Origin: an uncultured Candidatus Saccharibacteria bacterium
Lineage (GTDB): Bacteria; Patescibacteriota; UBA1384; CAYGGE01
Length of the DNA: 64,000 nucleotides
Direction: 5' to 3'
NCBI GenBank assembly: GCA_964349485.1
Contig: CAYGGE010000001.1
Location: 142,212 to 206,211, forward strand
Shown here: positions 5,200 to 63,689 of the stretch, one piece after another
Layout of the letters: each line of letters starts with the position of its first letter
Position numbering within the stretch: the first letter of the stretch is position 1
Position numbers and translations under genes: made by a program
The notes under the pieces: generated by a model
Told to the model about the DNA's origin: nothing
Seen by the model: the letters and a program-made list of their open reading frames with translations, nothing else
The model's database searches: none

Positions 5200-6381
5200 A
5201 TGTTCTTATTCCTAACCAAATTTAAGTCTATTATCCCAATTATTATCTTAGCTATTCTCGGTCTAGTCGCTGGAGGTATTTTTGGGGTTAAGAGCCGTCA
5301 ACAAACGAAGGTTATCTCCAACGTAAGCGCTGGCCCTTCAACTACTGCAGTTGTGCCAACTTCGACGCCTAGGGGACCAATCGTTCACAAGGTGTCTTCA
5401 CCCATGCCAAGAATTAATGCTCAGCCTGTAGCAAGGGTGACTTTAACACCAAGGGCGCCTGTACTTACCAGAAACGGGCCAGTTAATTGGGGGGTAACAA
5501 TTCGTCCATATCTTACCCCGGACCAGGGTTTTAATCGGGCGTTCCTGCCCAAACAGTTCGTACTCATGAAAGAGCTCGGAGTGACCAGCGTTCGAGCTGA
5601 CTATGACTTCACTCATGTCGACATGAATGATCTGATCGTGGCGCAAGCCAGACAACACAAGATGCAACTTATTTTCATCTTGCCAATGGATCAAAACCAG
5701 CTCGCGACGGACAAAAACCTGTCCAGTAATGTCTATAGGCAAGTCTATGACGTAGTAAAAAAGTATAAAGGTCAAGTCGCAGTATGGCAACTTGGTACTG
5801 AAGTCGCGACTGTGGCCATGAAAAAACCGGATATGAATGGTATCGAATTTACAGATTATCCTGAGGAGACTTATCGACCGGTCGCAACCTGGATACAAGC
5901 GGCTTCACGGGCGACGATCGATGCTGATCCGAGAGCCAAACGGCTTCTCAATGATCAATGGATTCATGCTGGATTCTTCAAGAAATTTCTCGCCGAAGGT
6001 GGTCAGTTCGATATTTTAGGTTGGAATTGGTTCTCCGATATGGGTGGCCCTGAGAGGATCGAAGAATTGCACATCAATGATGATCCGAATCGGCCTTTTC
6101 GACTGATGGATACTCTTAAGAGCTATAACAAAGAACTATGGTTTGCCGAAGTAAACCGTCGCGATGGTGATAGTGATGGCAACCCCGAGGCGCAAGCAGA
6201 TTTCATCGCTTCAATTGCACAGTACGCTAACGCCAACCAGCGGGTGAGTACATTTTTGGTCTTTCTATTGATAGGCGAAGCTGGTTACGGCATTGCCGAT
6301 GCTAATTATCAGGGTGGAACTGTATCCGGCGTCAAAAAGGCTTTTACTCGGTATCAACAGATCATTGACCAGTCCCGCTAG
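5200..6381 (+). CDS. Signal-anchored secreted protein with a possible clan GH-A (GH5/GH113-like) TIM-barrel glycoside hydrolase domain
   Basis: The track ORF 4882-6381 overlaps the convergent RmlC-like gene on the other strand and its ATG at 5072; first non-overlapping in-frame ATG is 5110; the real start is taken as the ATG at 5200 (MFLFLTKFKSIIPIIILAILGLVAGG, a signal anchor). WQLGTEV and LWFAEVN are candidate acid/base and nucleophile Glu motifs. The family is uncertain. Confidence 0.35.
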   Translation: MFLFLTKFKSIIPIIILAILGLVAGGIFGVKSRQQTKVISNVSAGPSTTAVVPTSTPRGPIVHKVSSPMPRINAQPVARVTLTPRAPVLTRNGPVNWGVTIRPYLTPDQGFNRAFLPKQFVLMKELGVTSVRADYDFTHVDMNDLIVAQARQHKMQLIFILPMDQNQLATDKNLSSNVYRQVYDVVKKYKGQVAVWQLGTEVATVAMKKPDMNGIEFTDYPEETYRPVATWIQAASRATIDADPRAKRLLNDQWIHAGFFKKFLAEGGQFDILGWNWFSDMGGPERIEELHINDDPNRPFRLMDTLKSYNKELWFAEVNRRDGDSDGNPEAQADFIASIAQYANANQRVSTFLVFLLIGEAGYGIADANYQGGTVSGVKKAFTRYQQIIDQSR

Positions 6382-6392
6382 GGTTATGCGAC

Positions 6393-6421
6393 TTGACAAT
6401 ACTAGCGTTTCCTGGTATTAT
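6393..6421 (+). promoter_or_regulatory. Sigma70-type promoter (TTGACA-17-TATTAT) driving the rnj leader
   Basis: Exact TTGACA at 6393-6398, a 17-nt spacer and TATTAT at 6416-6421. A leader of about 255 nt then runs to the rnj ATG. Confidence 0.5.
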
Positions 6422-6682
6422 AAACAAAGTAAATCGATACATTGTTCTCAAAGTTCTCAACTTGATTAATTCCTATCCCCGATAATTTTTTTTGTACTCT
6501 ATGCGAAATTCCCTTACCGTTAAACGATCTTACATGCGATGGCAATCAAAATCATGTATTGCGCTTGTAGCGATGAGTCTTTTACTATAAAAAATCGAAT
6601 AATATTCAACTCTGTTCTCGAAAAGAACAATTTGCGTTGCGCTTTGATCTAACTTTAACGCAACGTCAACGAAAGGAAACAC

Positions 6683-8887
6683 ATGGCAGACACTCCATCT
6701 GCAAACCCAATCAAAAAGCCGGCTAGTCCCCGAACTGTGCCAGAAAAAACTGCGCCAGTAGAAAAGACTAAAGCCCAAATCGCGACCGATTTTACTCGGT
6801 CAAGCTCCTCGTCAATCGGTGGACGCCGACGACCAACAGCTGATCGAACCGACCGACCGGTCAAACCAGCCATTCCTCGTGCCGGAACGGTCAAGGAAGT
6901 CAGTCGACAAGGCCGAGGCGAGCATATCCAACCGATTACCACCTCGACCTTTGAGGTACCCAAAGAAAAAATGAATGAGCGAACTGCCCATAAAGAACAG
7001 ACCAAAGCTCATCAGGAAGGTGAGACCTTAGTCTTTGAAAAAATCCAAGCTAAAAGTACTCCCGCGTCAATTCGGGCCCGTCGCGATTCGGCGTCTCGTC
7101 ACGATCGCGACGACCGGCGCGATGCGACTCCAGCCCACTTTGCAATGTCCATGAAAGATATGGAAGATACTAGCCGCAATACGCCAGCAACCATGCCCAA
7201 AACTGCCAAAGTTTTGAGTAAAGGGAAAACTGGCTCACTGCGAATCATTCCTTTAGGTGGTCTTGGTGAGATTGGCAAAAATATCATGGCCTACGAAACT
7301 GATAACGATATCATCGTCATCGATGCTGGCATGACTTTCCCTGACGAAACAATGCCAGGGATCGACCTAGTCTTACCTGACATTACCTATCTGACCGAAA
7401 ATCGTAAAAAAGTTCGCGCGTTGGTCATCACCCATGCACATGAAGATCATATCGGAGCAGTACCTTACGTTTGGCCCAAGCTCGGTTGTCCAATCTATGC
7501 TTCGGACCTGACTGCTGGTTTAATCCGGATCAAGATGGAAGAACACGGTCACAATGATGTGCCGATGCATATTCTGAAGTCTGGTGACCGAGTTCGTTTA
7601 GGTGACTTCGAAGTTGAACCGGTGCGAGTCACCCATTCAATTCCCGATGCCTTCGGTTTTGCGATTCGTACGCCGATTGGTCTAATTGCTCACTTTACAG
7701 ACTGGAAGATAGATCACACGCCAATCTCAGGCGAACCATTCGACTTTGTTCGGGTAGCTGAGCTCTCGCGAGAGGGTGTAAAACTGTTCTTGTCAGAGTC
7801 AACTAACGTGGAAACACCTGGTTATACAGTCAGTGAATCAATCCTCTCTGACACTTTCGATAATATCTTCAAAAACTCCAAGGGTCGAATTATCTTCACA
7901 ACCTTCGCTTCCATGATTAACCGGATTCAACAGGCCCTCGACGCCTCGGTGAAGCATGGCCGAAAAGTGGCTATCTCCGGACGAAGTCTTGAGAAATATA
8001 TTGAAGAGGCGATGAAACTTGGCTTCTTGAAAGTTCCCCAAGGCACCATGATCGATATTCGATCGGCAACCCGAACCCCTGACCATCAAATTGTCTACCT
8101 GACAACGGGGAGTCAGGGCGAGGAATATTCAGCCCTATCGCGTATTTCATCGGGCGAACATCGCCACATTCAAGTCAAGCGTGGTGACACGGTGGTTATC
8201 TCAGCTTCGATCATCCCTGGTAATGAATCGAGTGTCTTTGAAGTGGTGAACAACCTCTACAAGCAAGGTGCCCAAGTTATCTACGGCCGCCAAGTCGACA
8301 TCCACGTTTCTGGTCACGCCAACGAGGAAGAATTGAAGATGTTGATGGCCATGATGAAGCCGGAGTATTTCCTGCCAATTCACGGTGAGTTTCGTCACTT
8401 AGTTAAGCACGGCCGTATGGCTGAGAGACTGGGTGTCGACCCTAATAAGATCTTTATCTTAGAAAACGGTGGTGTCTTGCAGTTTGACGAAAACGGCGTT
8501 GGATCTGTCAGTCCTGAACGAGTTCAAGCTGGCCAAGTACTAGTCGACGGTCTTGGCGTCGGTGACGTTGGCAACATTGTGCTGCGTGACCGCCAAGCCA
8601 TGGCTAAAGACGGCATCTTTGTCGTCATCTTAACTGTCGATAAACAGTCTGGTGCCTTGGTCTCGAGCCCTGATATTATCTCCCGTGGCTTTGTCTACAT
8701 GCGAGCGGCTGAAGACTTGATTCATAAGTCGCGTCAAGAAATCAAACGAATGTTTGCCAAGCACAATGGCCGTTACCCCATGAACTACGACTATATCCGC
8801 CGCATGATCCGCGACGAATTGGGCGAATACCTCTTCGAATTCACCCAACGCCGACCGATGGTCATCCCGGTCGTTATTGAAGTCTAG
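6683..8887 (+). CDS. rnj: Ribonuclease J (metallo-beta-lactamase/beta-CASP) with an N-terminal low-complexity extension of about 185 aa
   Basis: LRIIPLGGLGEIGKNIMAYE...HAHEDHIGAVPYVW (HxHxDH) is followed by beta-CASP and C-terminal domains. AAAGGAAA RBS lies upstream of ATG 6683. The first ~185 residues are rich in R/D/T/P/K and lack a globular signature. Confidence 0.9.
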   Translation: MADTPSANPIKKPASPRTVPEKTAPVEKTKAQIATDFTRSSSSSIGGRRRPTADRTDRPVKPAIPRAGTVKEVSRQGRGEHIQPITTSTFEVPKEKMNERTAHKEQTKAHQEGETLVFEKIQAKSTPASIRARRDSASRHDRDDRRDATPAHFAMSMKDMEDTSRNTPATMPKTAKVLSKGKTGSLRIIPLGGLGEIGKNIMAYETDNDIIVIDAGMTFPDETMPGIDLVLPDITYLTENRKKVRALVITHAHEDHIGAVPYVWPKLGCPIYASDLTAGLIRIKMEEHGHNDVPMHILKSGDRVRLGDFEVEPVRVTHSIPDAFGFAIRTPIGLIAHFTDWKIDHTPISGEPFDFVRVAELSREGVKLFLSESTNVETPGYTVSESILSDTFDNIFKNSKGRIIFTTFASMINRIQQALDASVKHGRKVAISGRSLEKYIEEAMKLGFLKVPQGTMIDIRSATRTPDHQIVYLTTGSQGEEYSALSRISSGEHRHIQVKRGDTVVISASIIPGNESSVFEVVNNLYKQGAQVIYGRQVDIHVSGHANEEELKMLMAMMKPEYFLPIHGEFRHLVKHGRMAERLGVDPNKIFILENGGVLQFDENGVGSVSPERVQAGQVLVDGLGVGDVGNIVLRDRQAMAKDGIFVVILTVDKQSGALVSSPDIISRGFVYMRAAEDLIHKSRQEIKRMFAKHNGRYPMNYDYIRRMIRDELGEYLFEFTQRRPMVIPVVIEV

Positions 8888-8955
8888 ATTCAAAACTTGG
8901 AATATCAAAAAGCACCCACTTGTTCGGGTGCTTTTTGATGTTAGCTTTGAAGAGA

Positions 8956-10377
8956 CTATTGATGGATGAATACGGGTGTGTCATTTTCCGCCCAACTATA
9001 GACGAACTCAGAGTCACCGGCGCCGAGGCGAATGCAACCATGGCTGACCGGTGTACCAAGGTGATTAGTCCCTTCTTTAACACCATTGGGCCAGTACGGC
9101 AGACCGTGAATGCCATATCCATCGTAAACTCCTTCTGGTGTCTTGAGGCCCATCCAGTTCGGCATGAAGAGTTCAAAGGGTTTCGACCAAGCGGTGGCGA
9201 TATGGTTTTTTATCCTGAACTCACCGATTGGGGTTGGGGTACTCCATTTCCCAGTCGACACAACAAAGCTTTGCTGGTAACTTTCACCCTCAATCAAGTG
9301 CATTCGTTGAGAAGACAGATCAATCTCGACGTAGCGGCCAGGAAATCTCCCGATTTGGTACTCGGGGGTGACGGTGACGATTTTGCGACTGATCACCCGA
9401 GTTTTGAGAGTGATCGACGATTCGAAATTATTCGTCTGTAAACGCTCAAGTATTTGCTTGGTCGCGTCGGGGACATCTAACTCTCGGCCATCTCGACCTT
9501 CTTCGAGCACAACATCGCCCGGGGTTTGGATTCGTCGCATGATCGGTTTGATATCGACTTTTTTAACTATTTTGGTGACTTCTGAACGAATCTTGTCCTC
9601 ATCGAAGTTGACTACTAACACTCCGTCCTTAACTTGGTAGTAGACAAGGGAATAGATTGTCGTTGGTTCGAGGGTAATCGACACTTCTTCGGCGGTCAAA
9701 ACTAGCGGTTTAGTGAGAAGCTTCTTCAATGTCTCAATGGCTGATGTTGCCTGTTTTGGATCATTGATGGTCGGGGTTTCACTTGTATAACTGAGGGCGA
9801 TAATCGCTGTTTTCCCGGGCTGAACCTGACTTTGTATGTCTTGTCGCAATTGCGCCTTATTTAAAACTAAACCGTCCTCCGCTGGATTGACGATGACCTG
9901 GCCGTCTTGGAAATCAATCGATAAATCCTTTGGAGGCTTGATAGTATCTTTACCAATTTCATTCAGGTAACTATCAAAAACACCTTGGTTGACTTCATAG
10001 CGCAGTGGTGTTTGGCGGCCGCCATAATAGCGAAACACTGACTGGATTACTTCCTTCATTGTCGTGCCTCGTCCCACAGCCAAGGCTTCTTTGGCCATCA
10101 GTTTAGTATCGACTTGATAACCAAGCTCTTGGAGAGTCGGCTCATAACGCTTATCTTTGATTGTCAGGACGACTTTCTCTTCAAGCATGGCTTTATGAAT
10201 TGGCTGCAGGCGATCGATGACCTGGTTTTCAGTCATTCCAGCCAGAGGCTGGCTATCGACCCAAACCCCAGGATAGACCTCTCTAGCGTAGGCACGCTCA
10301 AACCACAAAAACCCCCAGATTAGTGCGTTGGCGGCCGTCAGAAAAACGACAAAAGTAAAGATCAGGCGGTGGGTCAT
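8956..10377 (-). CDS. L,D-transpeptidase (YkuD/ErfK domain) with an N-terminal TM anchor and a YoaR/PG-binding-like region
   Basis: C-terminal YGIHGLPYWPNG...GTPVSHGCIRL catalytic His/Cys motif. N-terminal TM helix MTHRLIFTFVVFLTAANALIWGF. Confidence 0.8.
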   Translation of the reverse strand: MTHRLIFTFVVFLTAANALIWGFLWFERAYAREVYPGVWVDSQPLAGMTENQVIDRLQPIHKAMLEEKVVLTIKDKRYEPTLQELGYQVDTKLMAKEALAVGRGTTMKEVIQSVFRYYGGRQTPLRYEVNQGVFDSYLNEIGKDTIKPPKDLSIDFQDGQVIVNPAEDGLVLNKAQLRQDIQSQVQPGKTAIIALSYTSETPTINDPKQATSAIETLKKLLTKPLVLTAEEVSITLEPTTIYSLVYYQVKDGVLVVNFDEDKIRSEVTKIVKKVDIKPIMRRIQTPGDVVLEEGRDGRELDVPDATKQILERLQTNNFESSITLKTRVISRKIVTVTPEYQIGRFPGRYVEIDLSSQRMHLIEGESYQQSFVVSTGKWSTPTPIGEFRIKNHIATAWSKPFELFMPNWMGLKTPEGVYDGYGIHGLPYWPNGVKEGTNHLGTPVSHGCIRLGAGDSEFVYSWAENDTPVFIHQ

Positions 10378-10454
10378 GGACCTATTATATGAGAATTATC
10401 GTGTGTCGAATAGAGGATGTAGAAGGGTATTAAAGGGAATATAGGGATGATATG

Positions 10455-10483
10455 TTGAGTAACATCATGTTTTCCGGTATAAT
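10455..10483 (+). promoter_or_regulatory. Candidate promoter for tRNA-Ile (TTGAGT-17-TATAAT)
   Basis: TTGAGT at 10455-10460, 17-nt spacer, TATAAT at 10478-10483, about 90 nt upstream of the tRNA. Confidence 0.4.
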
Positions 10484-10573
10484 TGACCTGTTCTTTTGTT
10501 GAATGTGTCTGGTAACTGACAATCGAGTACTGAGAGAAAAGGAAACTTCTCATCCTGTGGTCATCGAAGTAAA

Positions 10574-10649
10574 CGGGGCGTAGCTCAGTGGTTAGAGCAA
10601 ACGGCTTATATCCGTTCGGTCGCCGGTTCGAATCCAGCCGCCCCGACCA
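10574..10649 (+). tRNA. tRNA-Ile with the unusual anticodon UAU; 76 nt, CCA encoded
   Basis: Manual cloverleaf: acceptor CGGGGCG/CGCCCCG, D-arm GCTC-AGTGGTTA-GAGC, anticodon stem AACGG/CCGTT, loop CTTATAT (U33, anticodon TAT at 10607-10609, A37), T-arm GCCGG-TTCGAAT-CCAGC, discriminator A, CCA. Confidence 0.75.
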
Positions 10650-10652
10650 AAA

Positions 10653-10676
10653 ATGACCGATAACGGTCATTTTTTA
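10653..10676. terminator. Bidirectional rho-independent terminator between the tRNA-Ile gene and a convergent CDS
   Basis: ATGACCG-ataa-CGGTCAT hairpin followed by TTTTT on the plus strand and TTTT on the minus strand. Confidence 0.6.
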
Positions 10677-11531
10677 TTTATTAATTTGAGTCGGTAAATC
10701 GAGAACAGTAATGATTTGCTGATATTTCATCAGTGTCGCTTGGAGCTTTGTGCGTAAACCAAGAGTTGAGAATTCGGGGTTGCTTTCATCGCCGACAAGA
10801 ACGATAGCGAGTGGTTCGTGCTTTACCTGTTGAACTGCCGCATCACCCCGTGAATCGACCTCGAACAATTGGCCAAAGCCGTGACCTGTTGCAATACCGA
10901 TGGCGACTTCTAACTCTTTATTCATATATTCGGGGTGATTGCCGTAGTAGCGAACTGAACTTTGAAAGGCTTTTGGCAATCCGAGAACGGCTGGATTAAA
11001 GCGCCCGGTACCATCGACAACGATCGCCCGTGCATCATGAAGGGCGTGACTAGCATCAGGGTTATATGGTGCGTGGGTTGGCTCTAAAACCAAATCAGTA
11101 GCCTCGATTAGACGTTTGGCGACTCGTTGGCCTGCCTGTTCCGGGCTAAGGTTCAGGGCTTGATTGGCATTACAGAATGCGGCACAGGCGCCACAAGGAG
11201 CATCTGTCTCACCGTGATAAGTGACAGTCTTGATTTGGTGTCTTTTTAGTTCAGCCGCAAAATCGTCGAACTCGGTTTTGGACATCAAGATACCGCTACC
11301 GGCTACGCCAATCTTTGGATGCTCGGGATCGTTCGACAAAACTCGCTCATCGATACAGGCTACTACTGTTGGTTTTATAACGAAAGCTGTCCTTAATTTT
11401 TCTAAACCATATACCGTTTCCGGTGACTCATCGGCTAATCGCAGTAGATCTTGATAGGCTGGCTCTTGGTCGCGCCATCGCTCTATAGTCTCATGCTCTA
11501 TATTAACTTTTGTTTCATGTGTCTCTTGCAT
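10674..11531 (-). CDS. Hypothetical protein with CxDxR ... HxxxDxxCGA motifs (beta-carbonic-anhydrase-like zinc-site pattern); paralog of 11720-12529
   Basis: The track ORF was trimmed to the ATG at 11529-11531 (MQETHET...), which has a GGAGGT RBS 7 nt upstream. Motifs are VVACIDERV and YHGETDAPCGACAAF. Local GC is above the flanking DNA. Confidence 0.4.
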   Translation of the reverse strand: MQETHETKVNIEHETIERWRDQEPAYQDLLRLADESPETVYGLEKLRTAFVIKPTVVACIDERVLSNDPEHPKIGVAGSGILMSKTEFDDFAAELKRHQIKTVTYHGETDAPCGACAAFCNANQALNLSPEQAGQRVAKRLIEATDLVLEPTHAPYNPDASHALHDARAIVVDGTGRFNPAVLGLPKAFQSSVRYYGNHPEYMNKELEVAIGIATGHGFGQLFEVDSRGDAAVQQVKHEPLAIVLVGDESNPEFSTLGLRTKLQATLMKYQQIITVLDLPTQINK

Positions 11532-11639
11532 TGTGCTACCTCCACTTTGCTCTGTGTGCATGCCCGGTCCTTTTTTCACATTAACTAGATTAGAAAGTAA
11601 TTGTAGATACATTGTAAGAGTTAAGCAAGCCTTAACGGG

Positions 11640-11668
11640 TTGACAGATCGAAATGTATCGCGTAGAAT
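11640..11668 (+). promoter_or_regulatory. Consensus sigma70 promoter (TTGACA-17-TAGAAT) with a direct repeat AATGTATC x2
   Basis: TTGACA at 11640-11645, 17-nt spacer, TAGAAT at 11663-11668. AATGTATC occurs at 11651-11658 and 11665-11672. An AGAGGA RBS and ATG 11720 lie downstream. Confidence 0.6.
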
Positions 11669-11719
11669 GTATCAAGCTCAGACAGGCTGAGTGTTCTACA
11701 GAAGAACAGAGGATATGGG

Positions 11720-12529
11720 ATGAACGCGAACACACCTGATGTTTTAAGGATCATGGGGACCCAAGAGAGCCTGCCCGAAGACGAGCGTGGAAAGACCGAC
11801 AATGTACACGTTGTCGGTGGTGCTGAGCGGATCATCGACCCATCGGCACGGCCGGCGATATTCGAGCTGATCAATCTCGCCGTTCATGCACACGGGATCA
11901 CGGGGGTCGAGTTACTCGGTCCCTGGCGGTTTGCCGACCCAAGACATGTAAACCCCGAAGTGAGCCAGAAGACGAGGCATGATCATTTCAACCGTTGCCT
12001 TAGACGTTCCAGAGAGATTATTGCCGCTCGGTATCCGGGCCTCATCGTCAGCTTCAAGATGGACGAAGAGGTCTTCGCCGAGACTGATTGGTCAGTTGTC
12101 CCCGACGCTCGGCGGATCGAGATCCACTGCATGGACCCTCGCCTCGACAACCAACTTGTCGAAGCGTTTAACCGGGGGTATGTATTGCGGATTCCGGGCG
12201 GGGCGTCTAGCTTCAACCGGCCGAATTTCCGAGACTTCATGCTCTCTGAACTCGCTCGCATCCAGGAAAAGATGGCGCTAGAAAAGCGGGTAATCGAGTC
12301 GATTGTGCTCTGCGACCACTGGGACTGTGCTGCCCTAGACGGCACCGCTCGGACGAAAGAGATGGAGATCGCCAAGCATCAAGGCAATCTTCTGGATGCG
12401 GCTCAAGTGATCCGCTGCCGTTTCGATCTCTTAGGCTGGCAGATACCGGCACTGGGCGGGAGGATATACCATTTCAACGCCCCAGCACAGATATTTGACG
12501 TTTCACTTCGGGGCGAGAAGTCTGTCTAA
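11720..12529 (+). CDS. Hypothetical beta-carbonic-anhydrase-like protein (CxDxR / HxxC motifs); paralog of the divergent gene
   Basis: IEIHCMDPRLD and LCDHWDCAALDG match the beta-CA zinc-ligand motifs, and the C-terminal LGWQIPALGGRIYHF resembles the beta-CA hGWvYdi segment. This is the GC-richest segment of the window, about 57% GC. Confidence 0.4.
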   Translation: MNANTPDVLRIMGTQESLPEDERGKTDNVHVVGGAERIIDPSARPAIFELINLAVHAHGITGVELLGPWRFADPRHVNPEVSQKTRHDHFNRCLRRSREIIAARYPGLIVSFKMDEEVFAETDWSVVPDARRIEIHCMDPRLDNQLVEAFNRGYVLRIPGGASSFNRPNFRDFMLSELARIQEKMALEKRVIESIVLCDHWDCAALDGTARTKEMEIAKHQGNLLDAAQVIRCRFDLLGWQIPALGGRIYHFNAPAQIFDVSLRGEKSV

Positions 12530-12555
12530 GTCGAAACAACAAAGTAAATAGCGAA

Positions 12556-12590
12556 GAGACCACGGACAGCAGTCGTGGTCTCTTGCATTT
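12556..12590 (+). terminator. Candidate intrinsic terminator after the beta-CA-like gene
   Basis: GAGACCACG-gacagcagt-CGTGGTCTC 9-bp stem followed by a T-rich tract TTGCATTT. Confidence 0.4.
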
Positions 12591-12662
12591 CAAGGAATAA
12601 AGTATTTTCGAAAACGACCGTACAATGTGTAGTTATCCACAGGCTTGTCTCTAAACATGTCA

Positions 12663-12690
12663 TTGACAGCGTATGCGCCTGTGATAGTGT
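12663..12690 (+). promoter_or_regulatory. Candidate promoter (TTGACA-16-TAGTGT) giving a ~245-nt 5' UTR for the LTD surface-protein gene
   Basis: TTGACA at 12663-12668 and TAGTGT at 12685-12690. GGAGG RBS lies upstream of ATG 12938. Confidence 0.35.
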
Positions 12691-12937
12691 AGGTATATGC
12701 GATTCATGGTCTCGAAGCGCTAGTCCGCCGTCTGGTGGGTTAGGGCAACGTAGGGAGCATGGGTACTCTAGACATTTTACGACAGTATGGACTGTCTCGG
12801 GGTGATCATCGTTCTCGATGCGCCTTAACTGCTAAAGAGGGCTAACTGAATGCATAGAAACGGCTATGTACTTGTTTTCTGTGTACCCAAATAGTTCTTA
12901 ACCTATTTATTTACGCGGTTTATTCTGGAGGCTTAAT

Positions 12938-63431: not shown

Positions 63432-63580
63432 AAAAAAACTCTCCTAAGGGAGAGTTTTTTTGTCTACGCTAGGTAGACCACATCTCCCATGCCTTCCAGC
63501 ACTGGATCGGTTTGAGCACCCGGCCAAACCGGGTTGCTGGGTAGTCAATGAGCCGAAACTCTCCTACCGCTCTTGATGTA
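63432..63580 (-). promoter_or_regulatory. SAM-I (S-box) riboswitch with intrinsic terminator in the metK leader
   Basis: Minus-strand RNA CAUCAAGAGCGGUAGGAGAGUUUCGGCUCAUUGACUACCCAGCAACCCGGUUUGGCCGGGUGCUCAAACCGAUCCAGUGCUGGAAGGCAUGGGAGAUG matches the SAM-I consensus blocks (AUCAAGAG-GG-GGAG, UGA, CC-GCAACC, GGUGCU-AA, GAGAU). The terminator AAAAAAACUCUCC-cuua-GGAGAGUUUUUUU at 63432-63461 sits just upstream of the RBS. Confidence 0.75.
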
Positions 63581-63689
63581 TGTATTATTTGCAGTCTAGC
63601 AGATTTCAATGAAAGATCAAGATCGATCGGTTGCTTCAATCTACCATCATATGGTATGCTCCTGGCAGTAATATGAGGAAGAGGCCGAC

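Follow-up and report, generated by a model that had tools for sequence, protein, structure and literature searches.

Two divergently transcribed genes beside a tRNA-Ile gene in an uncultured Candidatus Saccharibacteria bacterium raise the question of whether their products, here called P1 and P2, are zinc proteins of the beta-class carbonic anhydrase (beta-CA) superfamily, how the two are related to each other and whether they work together. The genes lie in a stretch of 64,000 nucleotides (64 kb), called the window here, which covers positions 142,212 to 206,211 of contig CAYGGE010000001.1 (assembly GCA_964349485.1). A sequence-only reading of this locus had placed tRNA-Ile next to two divergent genes, which ARAGORN, Rfam and the list of open reading frames (ORFs) bear out, and had taken the genes for a paralogous, beta-CA-like pair on an acquired, GC-rich islet. 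Our sequence comparisons and structural models point to another picture, to which we give a probability of about 0.6. Both genes would genuinely encode zinc proteins of the beta-CA fold, they would be related at the superfamily level only, and P2 would occupy a partner slot divergent to P1. The coding regions are the following.

10674-11561 (295 residues) or 10674-11531 (285 residues), minus strand: P1, from the ORF list
11720-12529, plus strand: P2, 269 residues, from the ORF list
11720-12103, plus strand: N-terminal half of P2 (residues 1-128), a degenerate Pro_CA_2-like domain in which the Cys, Asp, Arg, His and Cys are lost
12104-12529, plus strand: C-terminal half of P2 (residues 129-269), a Pro_CA_2 / beta-CA domain with C137, D139, R141, G160, H200, D202 and C203 intact

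The affiliation of P2 was examined with two protein searches. A word-indexed search of 5.8 billion proteins found one relative at 67% identity, and an exhaustive HMMER search, run over 1.84 billion representatives, gave ten proteins at E <= 0.001. Two-domain relatives in the HMMER search came to 4 non-redundant proteins (P0002, P0015, P0016 and P0017). The form is extremely rare, and a metagenome scan for further P2 loci found none. The distant matches P0019-P0022 (137-160 residues) are bona fide members of Pro_CA_2 with 46-58 bits on PF20393, and some of them match Pro_CA too. Pro_CA_2 (PF20393, 'putative carbonic anhydrase') consists of uncharacterised single-domain proteins of about 125-160 residues from bacteria and archaea. 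When ten sequences were aligned jointly, the columns of C137 (codon 12128-12130), D139, R141, G160, H200, D202, C203 and G208 were invariant, and the corresponding motifs of P2 are C137-M-D-P-R-L, G160 and H200-W-D-C203-A-A.

The C-terminal half of P2 aligns end to end with Pro_CA_2 and shares with it C-M-D-[FP]-R-L, [PA]-G-[GA]-A, H-x-D-C-[AG] and a conserved E...H helix. For the five two-domain proteins, hhalign of their C-terminal halves alone against an independent Pro_CA_2 set gave a probability of 99.4% (E 3e-21). Unlike Pro_CA_2 proteins, P2 has an extra ligand-less copy at its N-terminus. This N-terminal half was also matched to the independent set (probability 97.7%, E 2e-12) and, with residues 25-114, to the C-terminal half of P2 itself (95.7%, E 9e-9). 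The order of the secondary-structure elements is alike in both halves of the AlphaFold2 (AF2) model, which has a predicted local distance difference test score (pLDDT) of 89.9. At the positions of the ligands, I-H-C-M-D-P-R-L and L-C-D-H-W-D-C-A-A of the C-terminal half are replaced by L-R-I-M-G-T-Q-E-S and L-L-G-P-W-R-F-A-D in the N-terminal half. With all five catalytic residues missing from its N-terminal half, P2 appears to be a pseudo-dimer fused into one chain, with a single Cys2His site predicted.

The profile of the P2 family was then compared with the PDB, where it matched beta-CAs at E 3e-4 to 2e-3 (CafC/CafD 6jqc/6jqd, 3las, Rv1284 1ylk and 5ztp). Lower in the list stood Cab and the hydrolases for carbonyl sulfide (COS) and carbon disulfide (CS2) (3vqj, 3ten). 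With Foldseek, the first 12 PDB matches of the P2 model were all beta-CAs (probability 0.72-1.00, E ~3e-3), and Cys137, Gly160 and His200 are placed at strand ends in the model. Members of the P2 family do not conserve the GW-x-[IY] segment at the C-terminus, in which the earlier reading had seen a beta-CA block. We regard it as very probable from sequence and model that P2 is a zinc protein of the beta-CA superfamily.

Beta-CAs are obligate dimers, and CsoSCA, the beta-CA of alpha-carboxysomes, is the textbook case of an internal duplication with one active and one degenerate half. P2 resembles CsoSCA (2FGY, 8THM, 9G4T) in that an internally duplicated beta-CA fold makes up a pseudo-dimer, with a single zinc site that is predicted in P2. 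In CsoSCA, however, it is the C-terminal half that is degenerate, in P2 the N-terminal one, and P2 is built of Pro_CA_2 domains. By sequence and fold, the catalytic half is matched best by the small Cab-type beta-CAs (Cab 1G5C of M. thermautotrophicus, Rv1284 1YLK of M. tuberculosis and CafC/CafD 6JQC/6JQD of A. fumigatus), with which it has CxDxR, HxxC and a minimal core in common. In contrast to P2, these are homodimers or tetramers of single-domain chains with at least two zinc sites, and their identity to P2 is 12-21%. As judged from alignments and model, P2 is a predicted pseudo-dimeric beta-CA that evolved independently in the Pro_CA_2 branch, with its halves in the reverse order to CsoSCA.

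A Pro_CA_2 protein of 245 residues with two matched stretches (P0018) shows the other arrangement. Its intact C-I-D-F-R / H-W-D-C half is N-terminal and its ligand-less half C-terminal, and from this order of the halves one-sided degeneration after duplication seems to have occurred more than once in Pro_CA_2.

P1 was analysed in the same manner, and its residues are counted from the ATG at 11531, which has a GGAGG 8 nt upstream and gives a protein of 285 residues. The true start is probably the ATG at 11561, ten codons upstream, which gives 295 residues beginning with MHT. This start is favoured because the ortholog P0004 begins with MHT and the NCBI record P0024 is the 295-residue form. About 12 relatives at 26-52% identity were found, labelled as Candidatus Saccharibacteria, 'Patescibacteria group' or unclassified metagenome-assembled genomes (MAGs), and a metagenome scan returned only 3 short loci. 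P1 represents a small family restricted to Patescibacteria, Saccharibacteria included, for which there is no Pfam model.

An alignment of 12 family members has invariant columns at C59, D61, E62, R63, A77, G78, H106, C113, G114 and A115, and the motifs of P1 are C59-I-D-E-R-V, A77-G78 and H106-x6-C113-G-A. Most relatives have Y-H-E-G-C-G-A, a literal HxxCG, at the last of these, and the Arg of CxDxR is replaced in a few outliers (L011, L012, L017 and the L019 paralog). The residues C59, D61, R63, H106 and C113 are the putative zinc and catalytic set. In the AF2 model of P1 (pLDDT 87.7), C59 comes straight after strand 56-58, A77-G78 after strand 73-75 and H106 after strand 102-105; C113 is at the start of helix 114-122. 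The modelled placement corresponds to the beta-CA register and to the strand-end positions of Cys137, Gly160 and His200 in P2. The Cys/His motifs that had been picked out from the DNA are exactly the invariant columns of both family alignments and are therefore more than chance.

When the P1 model was searched with Foldseek, ranks 1 and 2 were two chains of the Cyanobium CsoSCA (8thm) with probabilities of 0.89 and 0.82 (E 8e-3), and all other matches had 0.20 or less. The full-length profile of the P1 family had a carbonic anhydrase (CA), 6y04, as its best PDB match (E 0.037), aligned through CxDxR, AG and HxxCG. P1 is like CsoSCA in that its His-x(n)-Cys spacing is longer than HxxC, and CsoSCA is its sole credible structural match. 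Unlike CsoSCA, which has about 460-520 residues, P1 has 285-295 and is without a Pfam CsoSCA match. An internal duplication of P1 was looked for, but its halves have no mutual similarity, and competing weak alignments exist. Because the similarity is not significant and an internal repeat is missing, P1 was filed as a protein that works or folds like a CsoSCA-type beta-CA and not as a member of that family. Its membership in the beta-CA superfamily as a zinc protein is probable from motifs and model, at a lower grade than for P2.

Carboxysome, Rubisco and hydrogenase genes were not found near P1 and P2, and a literature search gave nothing relevant on CsoSCA-like proteins in Patescibacteria or on carbonic anhydrases in Saccharibacteria. 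Shorter, orphan 'non-cso' homologs of CsoSCA that lie outside carboxysome operons and have one zinc site per pseudo-dimer have been described (Pulsford et al. 2024; PMC11086599).

Two further features of the P1 family were observed. In the closest relatives of P1 the putative zinc cysteine is the first residue of an additional cysteine cluster, C-G-A-C-x-x-[FY]-C, which the more distant members lack. The cluster may act as a redox switch or form a second metal site.

Residues 113-120 of P1, ~11172-11195, minus strand: cysteine cluster, from the family alignment

Twin-arginine-type signals occur in two members, P0006 (R-R-E-L-L-L-T-G-A-I-S-G-A-A-L-L) and the product of L019 130-996 (S-R-R-G-L-M-S-V-G-A-I-A-A-G-G-L), which suggests that some members may be exported folded and metal-loaded. 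P1 of the window is without a signal sequence, as is P2.

The proposed paralogy of P1 and P2 did not hold when the two were aligned pairwise. BLASTP gave E 0.33, and hhalign gave probabilities of 0.35% and 6.7%. The latter value was obtained for the P1 family against the P2 family, where the same motif residues are paired (P 0.005). On these alignments P1 and P2 are remote branches of one superfamily at best and not recent paralogs. The beta-CA character that had been deduced from the motifs stands for P2, given the Pro_CA_2, PDB and Foldseek matches, and is plausible for P1, given the CsoSCA match and the invariant residues.

Whether the two genes belong together was examined by looking at the neighbours of their homologs. 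In L003, a contig from a Joint Genome Institute (JGI) metagenome, and in L019, the slot beside the P1 ortholog is filled not by P2 but by a divergent P1-family paralog (L003 6986-7888; L019 130-996), which in L019 has a twin-arginine-like S-R-R-G-L-M signal. The locus L011 has three overlapping ORFs on the same strand at 6025-8202, downstream of genes for ATP synthase. A P1 homolog with its Arg replaced (C-I-D-E-G) comes first, the second ORF (256 residues) contains C-S-D-G-D and V-H-A-P-C-G-A-A, and the third (226 residues) looks like a degenerate, ligand-less relative. The P2-family gene for P0017 in L015 lies 103 nt downstream of a gene for 340 residues that matches the Pfam model CsoSCA_cat PF20686 with 23 bits (cutoff 21.5) and aligns to the CsoSCA of H. 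neapolitanus. The contig of P0015 has a convergent neighbour of 352 residues with a weak CsoSCA_cat match, and Ddl and LTD genes are nearby.

P1- or CsoSCA-like genes thus stand recurrently beside a second beta-CA-like gene. The observation is new here and, with few loci, a pattern and not a statistic. Since CsoSCA-like genes are rare, 3 of the 4 informative P2 contexts are hard to put down to chance. The partner slot beside P1 holds a different beta-CA-like gene in relatives, which suggests that the products work together. The MAG of L011 is labelled Gammaproteobacteria, and its locus looks Patescibacteria-like.

If P2 functions as proposed, its single chain would form the two-fold 'dimer' that beta-CAs need, with one Cys2His zinc site. 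A zinc-bound hydroxide, oriented by the Asp-Arg dyad, would attack CO2 or a similar small heterocumulene, and CO2 and bicarbonate would be interconverted by P1 and P2. The two products may cooperate, for instance by forming a hetero-oligomer or by being regulated together. The odds that either protein is a true carbonic anhydrase are about even, as judged from the sequences, and joint action of P1 and P2 is a tentative idea that we hold to be rather unlikely. Also rather unlikely is the wider proposal of a previously unrecognised two-gene module in Patescibacteria and some other bacteria, in which a miniature CsoSCA-like protein (of the P1 or PF20686 type) and a second, divergent protein of the beta-CA fold would form or act as a heteromeric zinc enzyme. 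The second gene of this module would code for a fused pseudo-dimer of the P2 type, whose N-terminal half is dead, or for a P1 paralog, sometimes with a twin-arginine signal. Substrate or regulation may differ from those of ordinary CAs, and the ligand-less halves may be allosteric or partner-binding sites, as in CsoSCA.

The control region between the two genes was inspected for signs of common regulation. P1 and P2 are separated by an intergenic region of 158 bp with the following elements.

11640-11668, plus strand: P2 promoter TTGACA-17-TAGAAT, matching at 11/12 positions in the promoter scan
11711-11715, plus strand: ribosome-binding site GAGGA of P2, 5 nt upstream of the start, spacer TATG
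11600-11628, minus strand: candidate P1 promoter TTGCTT-17-TACAAT, found by eye and below the threshold of the promoter scan
11606-11613 (minus strand), 11652-11659 (plus strand) and 11666-11673 (plus strand): AATGTATC boxes

The P2 promoter with two repeat copies had already been seen by the sequence-only reading and was recovered by the scan, with AATGTATC at 11652 and 11666. The 64 kb contain 5 copies of AATGTATC, where 2.25 are expected, and 3 of the 5 are clustered in 68 bp inside the P1-P2 intergenic region. Each of the two divergent promoters has a box next to or overlapping its -10 element, the P1 promoter being read by eye only; in this candidate promoter the box occupies the end of the spacer. 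The intergenic boxes were also detected as an inverted repeat (I5), and an Rfam scan of the intergenic regions gave no match. It is possible from their position that the boxes are a shared operator that co-regulates P1 and P2. The local repeat of the earlier proposal is real. It is not conserved in the relatives L014 and L003, and because of its absence there the operator idea is kept as a within-genome observation only.

Several results weigh against two beta-CA-fold proteins that form a pair. P2 stays below the Pfam cutoffs, with 15.2 bits on Pro_CA_2 PF20393 (E 0.025; cutoff 30) and 12.6 bits on Pro_CA PF00484, where the gathering score is 25.7. The relative P0015 has 18.7 bits on PF20393. 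P1 has no match to PF00484 and reaches no Pfam or NCBIfam cutoff. Searches of NCBIfam, PADLOC and the PDB sequences with P1 and P2 gave nothing above threshold. The Foldseek matches of both proteins have E-values of only about 3e-3 to 8e-3 and TM-scores of 0.3-0.47. In the literature searched, nothing was found on PF20393/Pro_CA_2, and the matches to the name concern the unrelated ProcA2. As to the pairing, the P2-family locus L013 is without a CA-like neighbour, and several of the more distant P1 homologs are solo.

The alternative that survives best, although we hold it to be unlikely, keeps the beta-CA fold for both proteins but not the CA activity. They would act on another small substrate (COS, CS2 or cyanate-like) or be Cys2His redox or metal sensors, and the C-terminal block of P1 would be the real functional site. 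The beta-CA superfamily includes COS and CS2 hydrolases, two of which (3vqj, 3ten) appear in the P2 profile list, but most of its characterised members are CAs. The strongest conservation of P1 lies outside the CA motifs, in the C-terminal block H165-[DN]-A-R ... D173-G-[TS]-G-R-F-N-P ... E206 ... H217-G-F-G. The closest P1 relatives have the extra C-x-x-C-x-x-x-C cluster at the zinc cysteine, and both families are far from all assayed CAs. A change of function also has a precedent, as the degenerate half of CsoSCA has become an allosteric site for ribulose bisphosphate (RuBP; PMC11086599). Against this alternative, both families have the full Cys/Asp/Arg/His/Cys set as invariant residues, the Asp-Arg dyad typical of active beta-CAs included, and nothing in the neighbouring genes hints at sulfur or cyanate metabolism.

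Less likely still is that P1 does not have the beta-CA fold at all, so that its motif resemblance would be coincidental, only P2 would be CA-like and the adjacency would have no functional meaning. P1 and its relatives had no Pfam match at E up to 10, the CsoSCA models PF20686 and PF08936 included, and the CA match in the PDB is lost when only the catalytic half is used as the profile. The CsoSCA match of P1 has a TM-score of 0.39 (TMq) and a root-mean-square deviation of 12.9 A, and canonical beta-CAs are absent from the top 50 Foldseek matches. At the sequence level the link of P1 to the superfamily is fragile. With hhalign, P1 against Pro_CA_2 gave P 0.06-0.09, and the P1 profile against a CsoSCA-like protein of 340 residues gave an empirical p of about 0.01 (shuffled controls) with inconsistent aligned segments. 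For the C-terminal block of P1 no beta-CA counterpart was established. However, CsoSCA is the only Foldseek match above 0.2, and the five residues are invariant in 12-14 sequences and are located at strand ends and at a helix start, as in beta-CAs. In addition, three independent weak alignments (to the P2 family, to 6y04 and to Pro_CA_2) pair the same residues, and P2-family genes elsewhere adjoin bona fide CsoSCA_cat genes.

The third alternative, the acquired islet, was tested by base composition and gene order. P2 has a GC content of 55.9% and 64.8% GC at third codon positions (GC3), the highest of all gene-sized windows in the 64 kb (mean 46.8%, standard deviation 2.5; fraction at or above, 0.001). 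P1 has 47.2% GC and 41.6% GC3 and stands at about the 60th percentile, with 42% of the gene-sized windows at or above it. The whole span 10650-12560 has 50.1% and is only in the top 6-9% of windows. Of the GC-rich islet, the P2 gene alone remains as an outlier. The P2-family genes of four genomes were compared with the rest of their loci.

11720-12529 of the window: P2
222-1016 of L014: P2-family gene, 55.8% GC (locus 44.0%)
7069-7851 of L013: P2-family gene, 60.3% GC (locus 52.1%)
1586-2302 of L015: P2-family gene, 50.5% GC (locus 42.6%)

These genes lie about 8 percentage points in GC, and also in GC3, above the rest of the locus in 4 of 4 genomes with backgrounds of 43-52%. A surplus in every host argues for a bias that is intrinsic to the family and not for recent transfer. 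The same GC surplus was seen in the P1 paralog of L003 and in the second ORF of L011.

The gene order of L003 is YkuD, tRNA-Ile(TAT), P1 ortholog, second gene, LTD and DivIC, which mirrors the window; its P1 ortholog P0004 is 52% identical to P1. P1 is a native, syntenic gene, and it stands between tRNA-Ile and P2. No integrase was found among the called neighbour genes of the window, and an att-like repeat was not detected, the 25-nt 3' end of the tRNA being unique in the 64 kb even when 3 mismatches were allowed. The segment is not an island that integrated at the tRNA. P2 itself could be a later arrival, and here the evidence is mixed. The slot beside the P1 ortholog of L003 contains a different gene and no P2. 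In L014, the P2 homolog is 67% identical, the non-coding DNA downstream of it is conserved with the window and the first 25 nt resemble the P1-proximal promoter region of the window. Because of these shared flanks, the arrangement predates the split of the window genome and the L014 genome.

It is therefore improbable that P1 and P2 are diverged duplicates carried by a GC-rich island that inserted at tRNA-Ile: the genes are adjacent, both beta-CA-like and next door to a tRNA, and P2 is a strong GC and GC3 outlier that is missing from the L003 slot, but the two proteins fail to align, P1 is average in GC, separates P2 from the tRNA and lies between tRNA-Ile and LTD in L003 too, neither an integrase nor a second tRNA 3' end was found, and the P2 homologs are GC-rich in all four genomes, the syntenic L014 included, which looks like a family trait.

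An exact direct repeat of 12 nt, GTCTCTTGCATT, is present at 11521-11532 and 12578-12589 and brackets the intergenic region and P2. It was considered as an insertion scar and rejected: the first copy lies within the coding region of P1, L014 does not have the repeat, and chance alone would give about 0.2 repeats of this kind in the region. The repeat is probably due to chance.

The remaining features around the two genes are the following.

10574-10649, plus strand: tRNA-Ile, anticodon UAU (gene TAT), found by ARAGORN and by Rfam (tRNA, 65.8 bits)
10649-10674: hairpin flanked on either side by A/T runs, located between the 3' end of the tRNA and the stop codon of P1
12556-12582, plus strand: hairpin gagaccacg ... 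cgtggtctc with a 9-bp stem, 27 nt past the P2 stop codon, read from the sequence
10374-10670, minus strand: ORF of 98 residues
12598-12700: non-coding element upstream of the LTD-domain gene
63446-63584, minus strand: match to the SAM-I/IV riboswitch (S-adenosylmethionine), 41.7 bits with an Rfam gathering score of 41.1

The tRNA-Ile(TAT) gene and P1 are convergent. Most bacteria decode AUA by a tRNA with the anticodon CAU and a lysidine modification, not by a UAU anticodon. The same tRNA-Ile(TAT) is found in L003 at 8943-9018, in the syntenic position between the P1 ortholog and the YkuD gene. The hairpin at 10649-10674, with an 11-bp stem, a 4-nt loop and a T tail in the terminator scan, is likely a bidirectional terminator that also ends the convergent P1. 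The hairpin at 12556-12582 is a possible P2 terminator, as read from its sequence, and was missed by the terminator scan because its T run is weak. The ORF of 98 residues, annotated by gene callers (L001 8655-8951), overlaps the tRNA-Ile gene in antisense and is almost certainly spurious. Neighbouring genes in the window encode YkuD, RNase J, LTD and DivIC proteins and glycosyltransferases.

The non-coding element is conserved in three genomes, each time upstream of an LTD-domain gene (window 12598-12700; L014 1095-1179; L003 ~6700-6800, minus strand). It reads A-C-G-A-C-C-G-T-A-C-A-A-T-G-T-G-T-A-G-T-T-A-T-C-C-A-C-A and is followed about 20 nt on by TTGACA and then TAGTGT. Its identity between the window and L014 is about 80% across 88 nt, whereas the P2 coding DNA beside it has 69%. 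Rfam has no match to it. From its sequence, the element is probably the LTD promoter with a regulator site upstream of it.

What the locus means depends on the activity of the two proteins. If they are plain carbonic anhydrases, the gain would be little more than a useful correction to the annotation of two 'hypothetical protein' families. P2 would represent the CsoSCA-type solution, arisen independently within the uncharacterised Pro_CA_2 branch and with the reverse domain order. If true, P1 would extend CsoSCA-like proteins to the tiny, non-autotrophic, host-dependent Patescibacteria, which have no carboxysome. The recurrence of CA-like genes side by side gives a concrete hypothesis of a heteromer or of a divided function. 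In conclusion, the pair of P1 and P2 may serve as a starting point for working out what Pro_CA_2 and the 'non-cso' CsoSCA homologs do.

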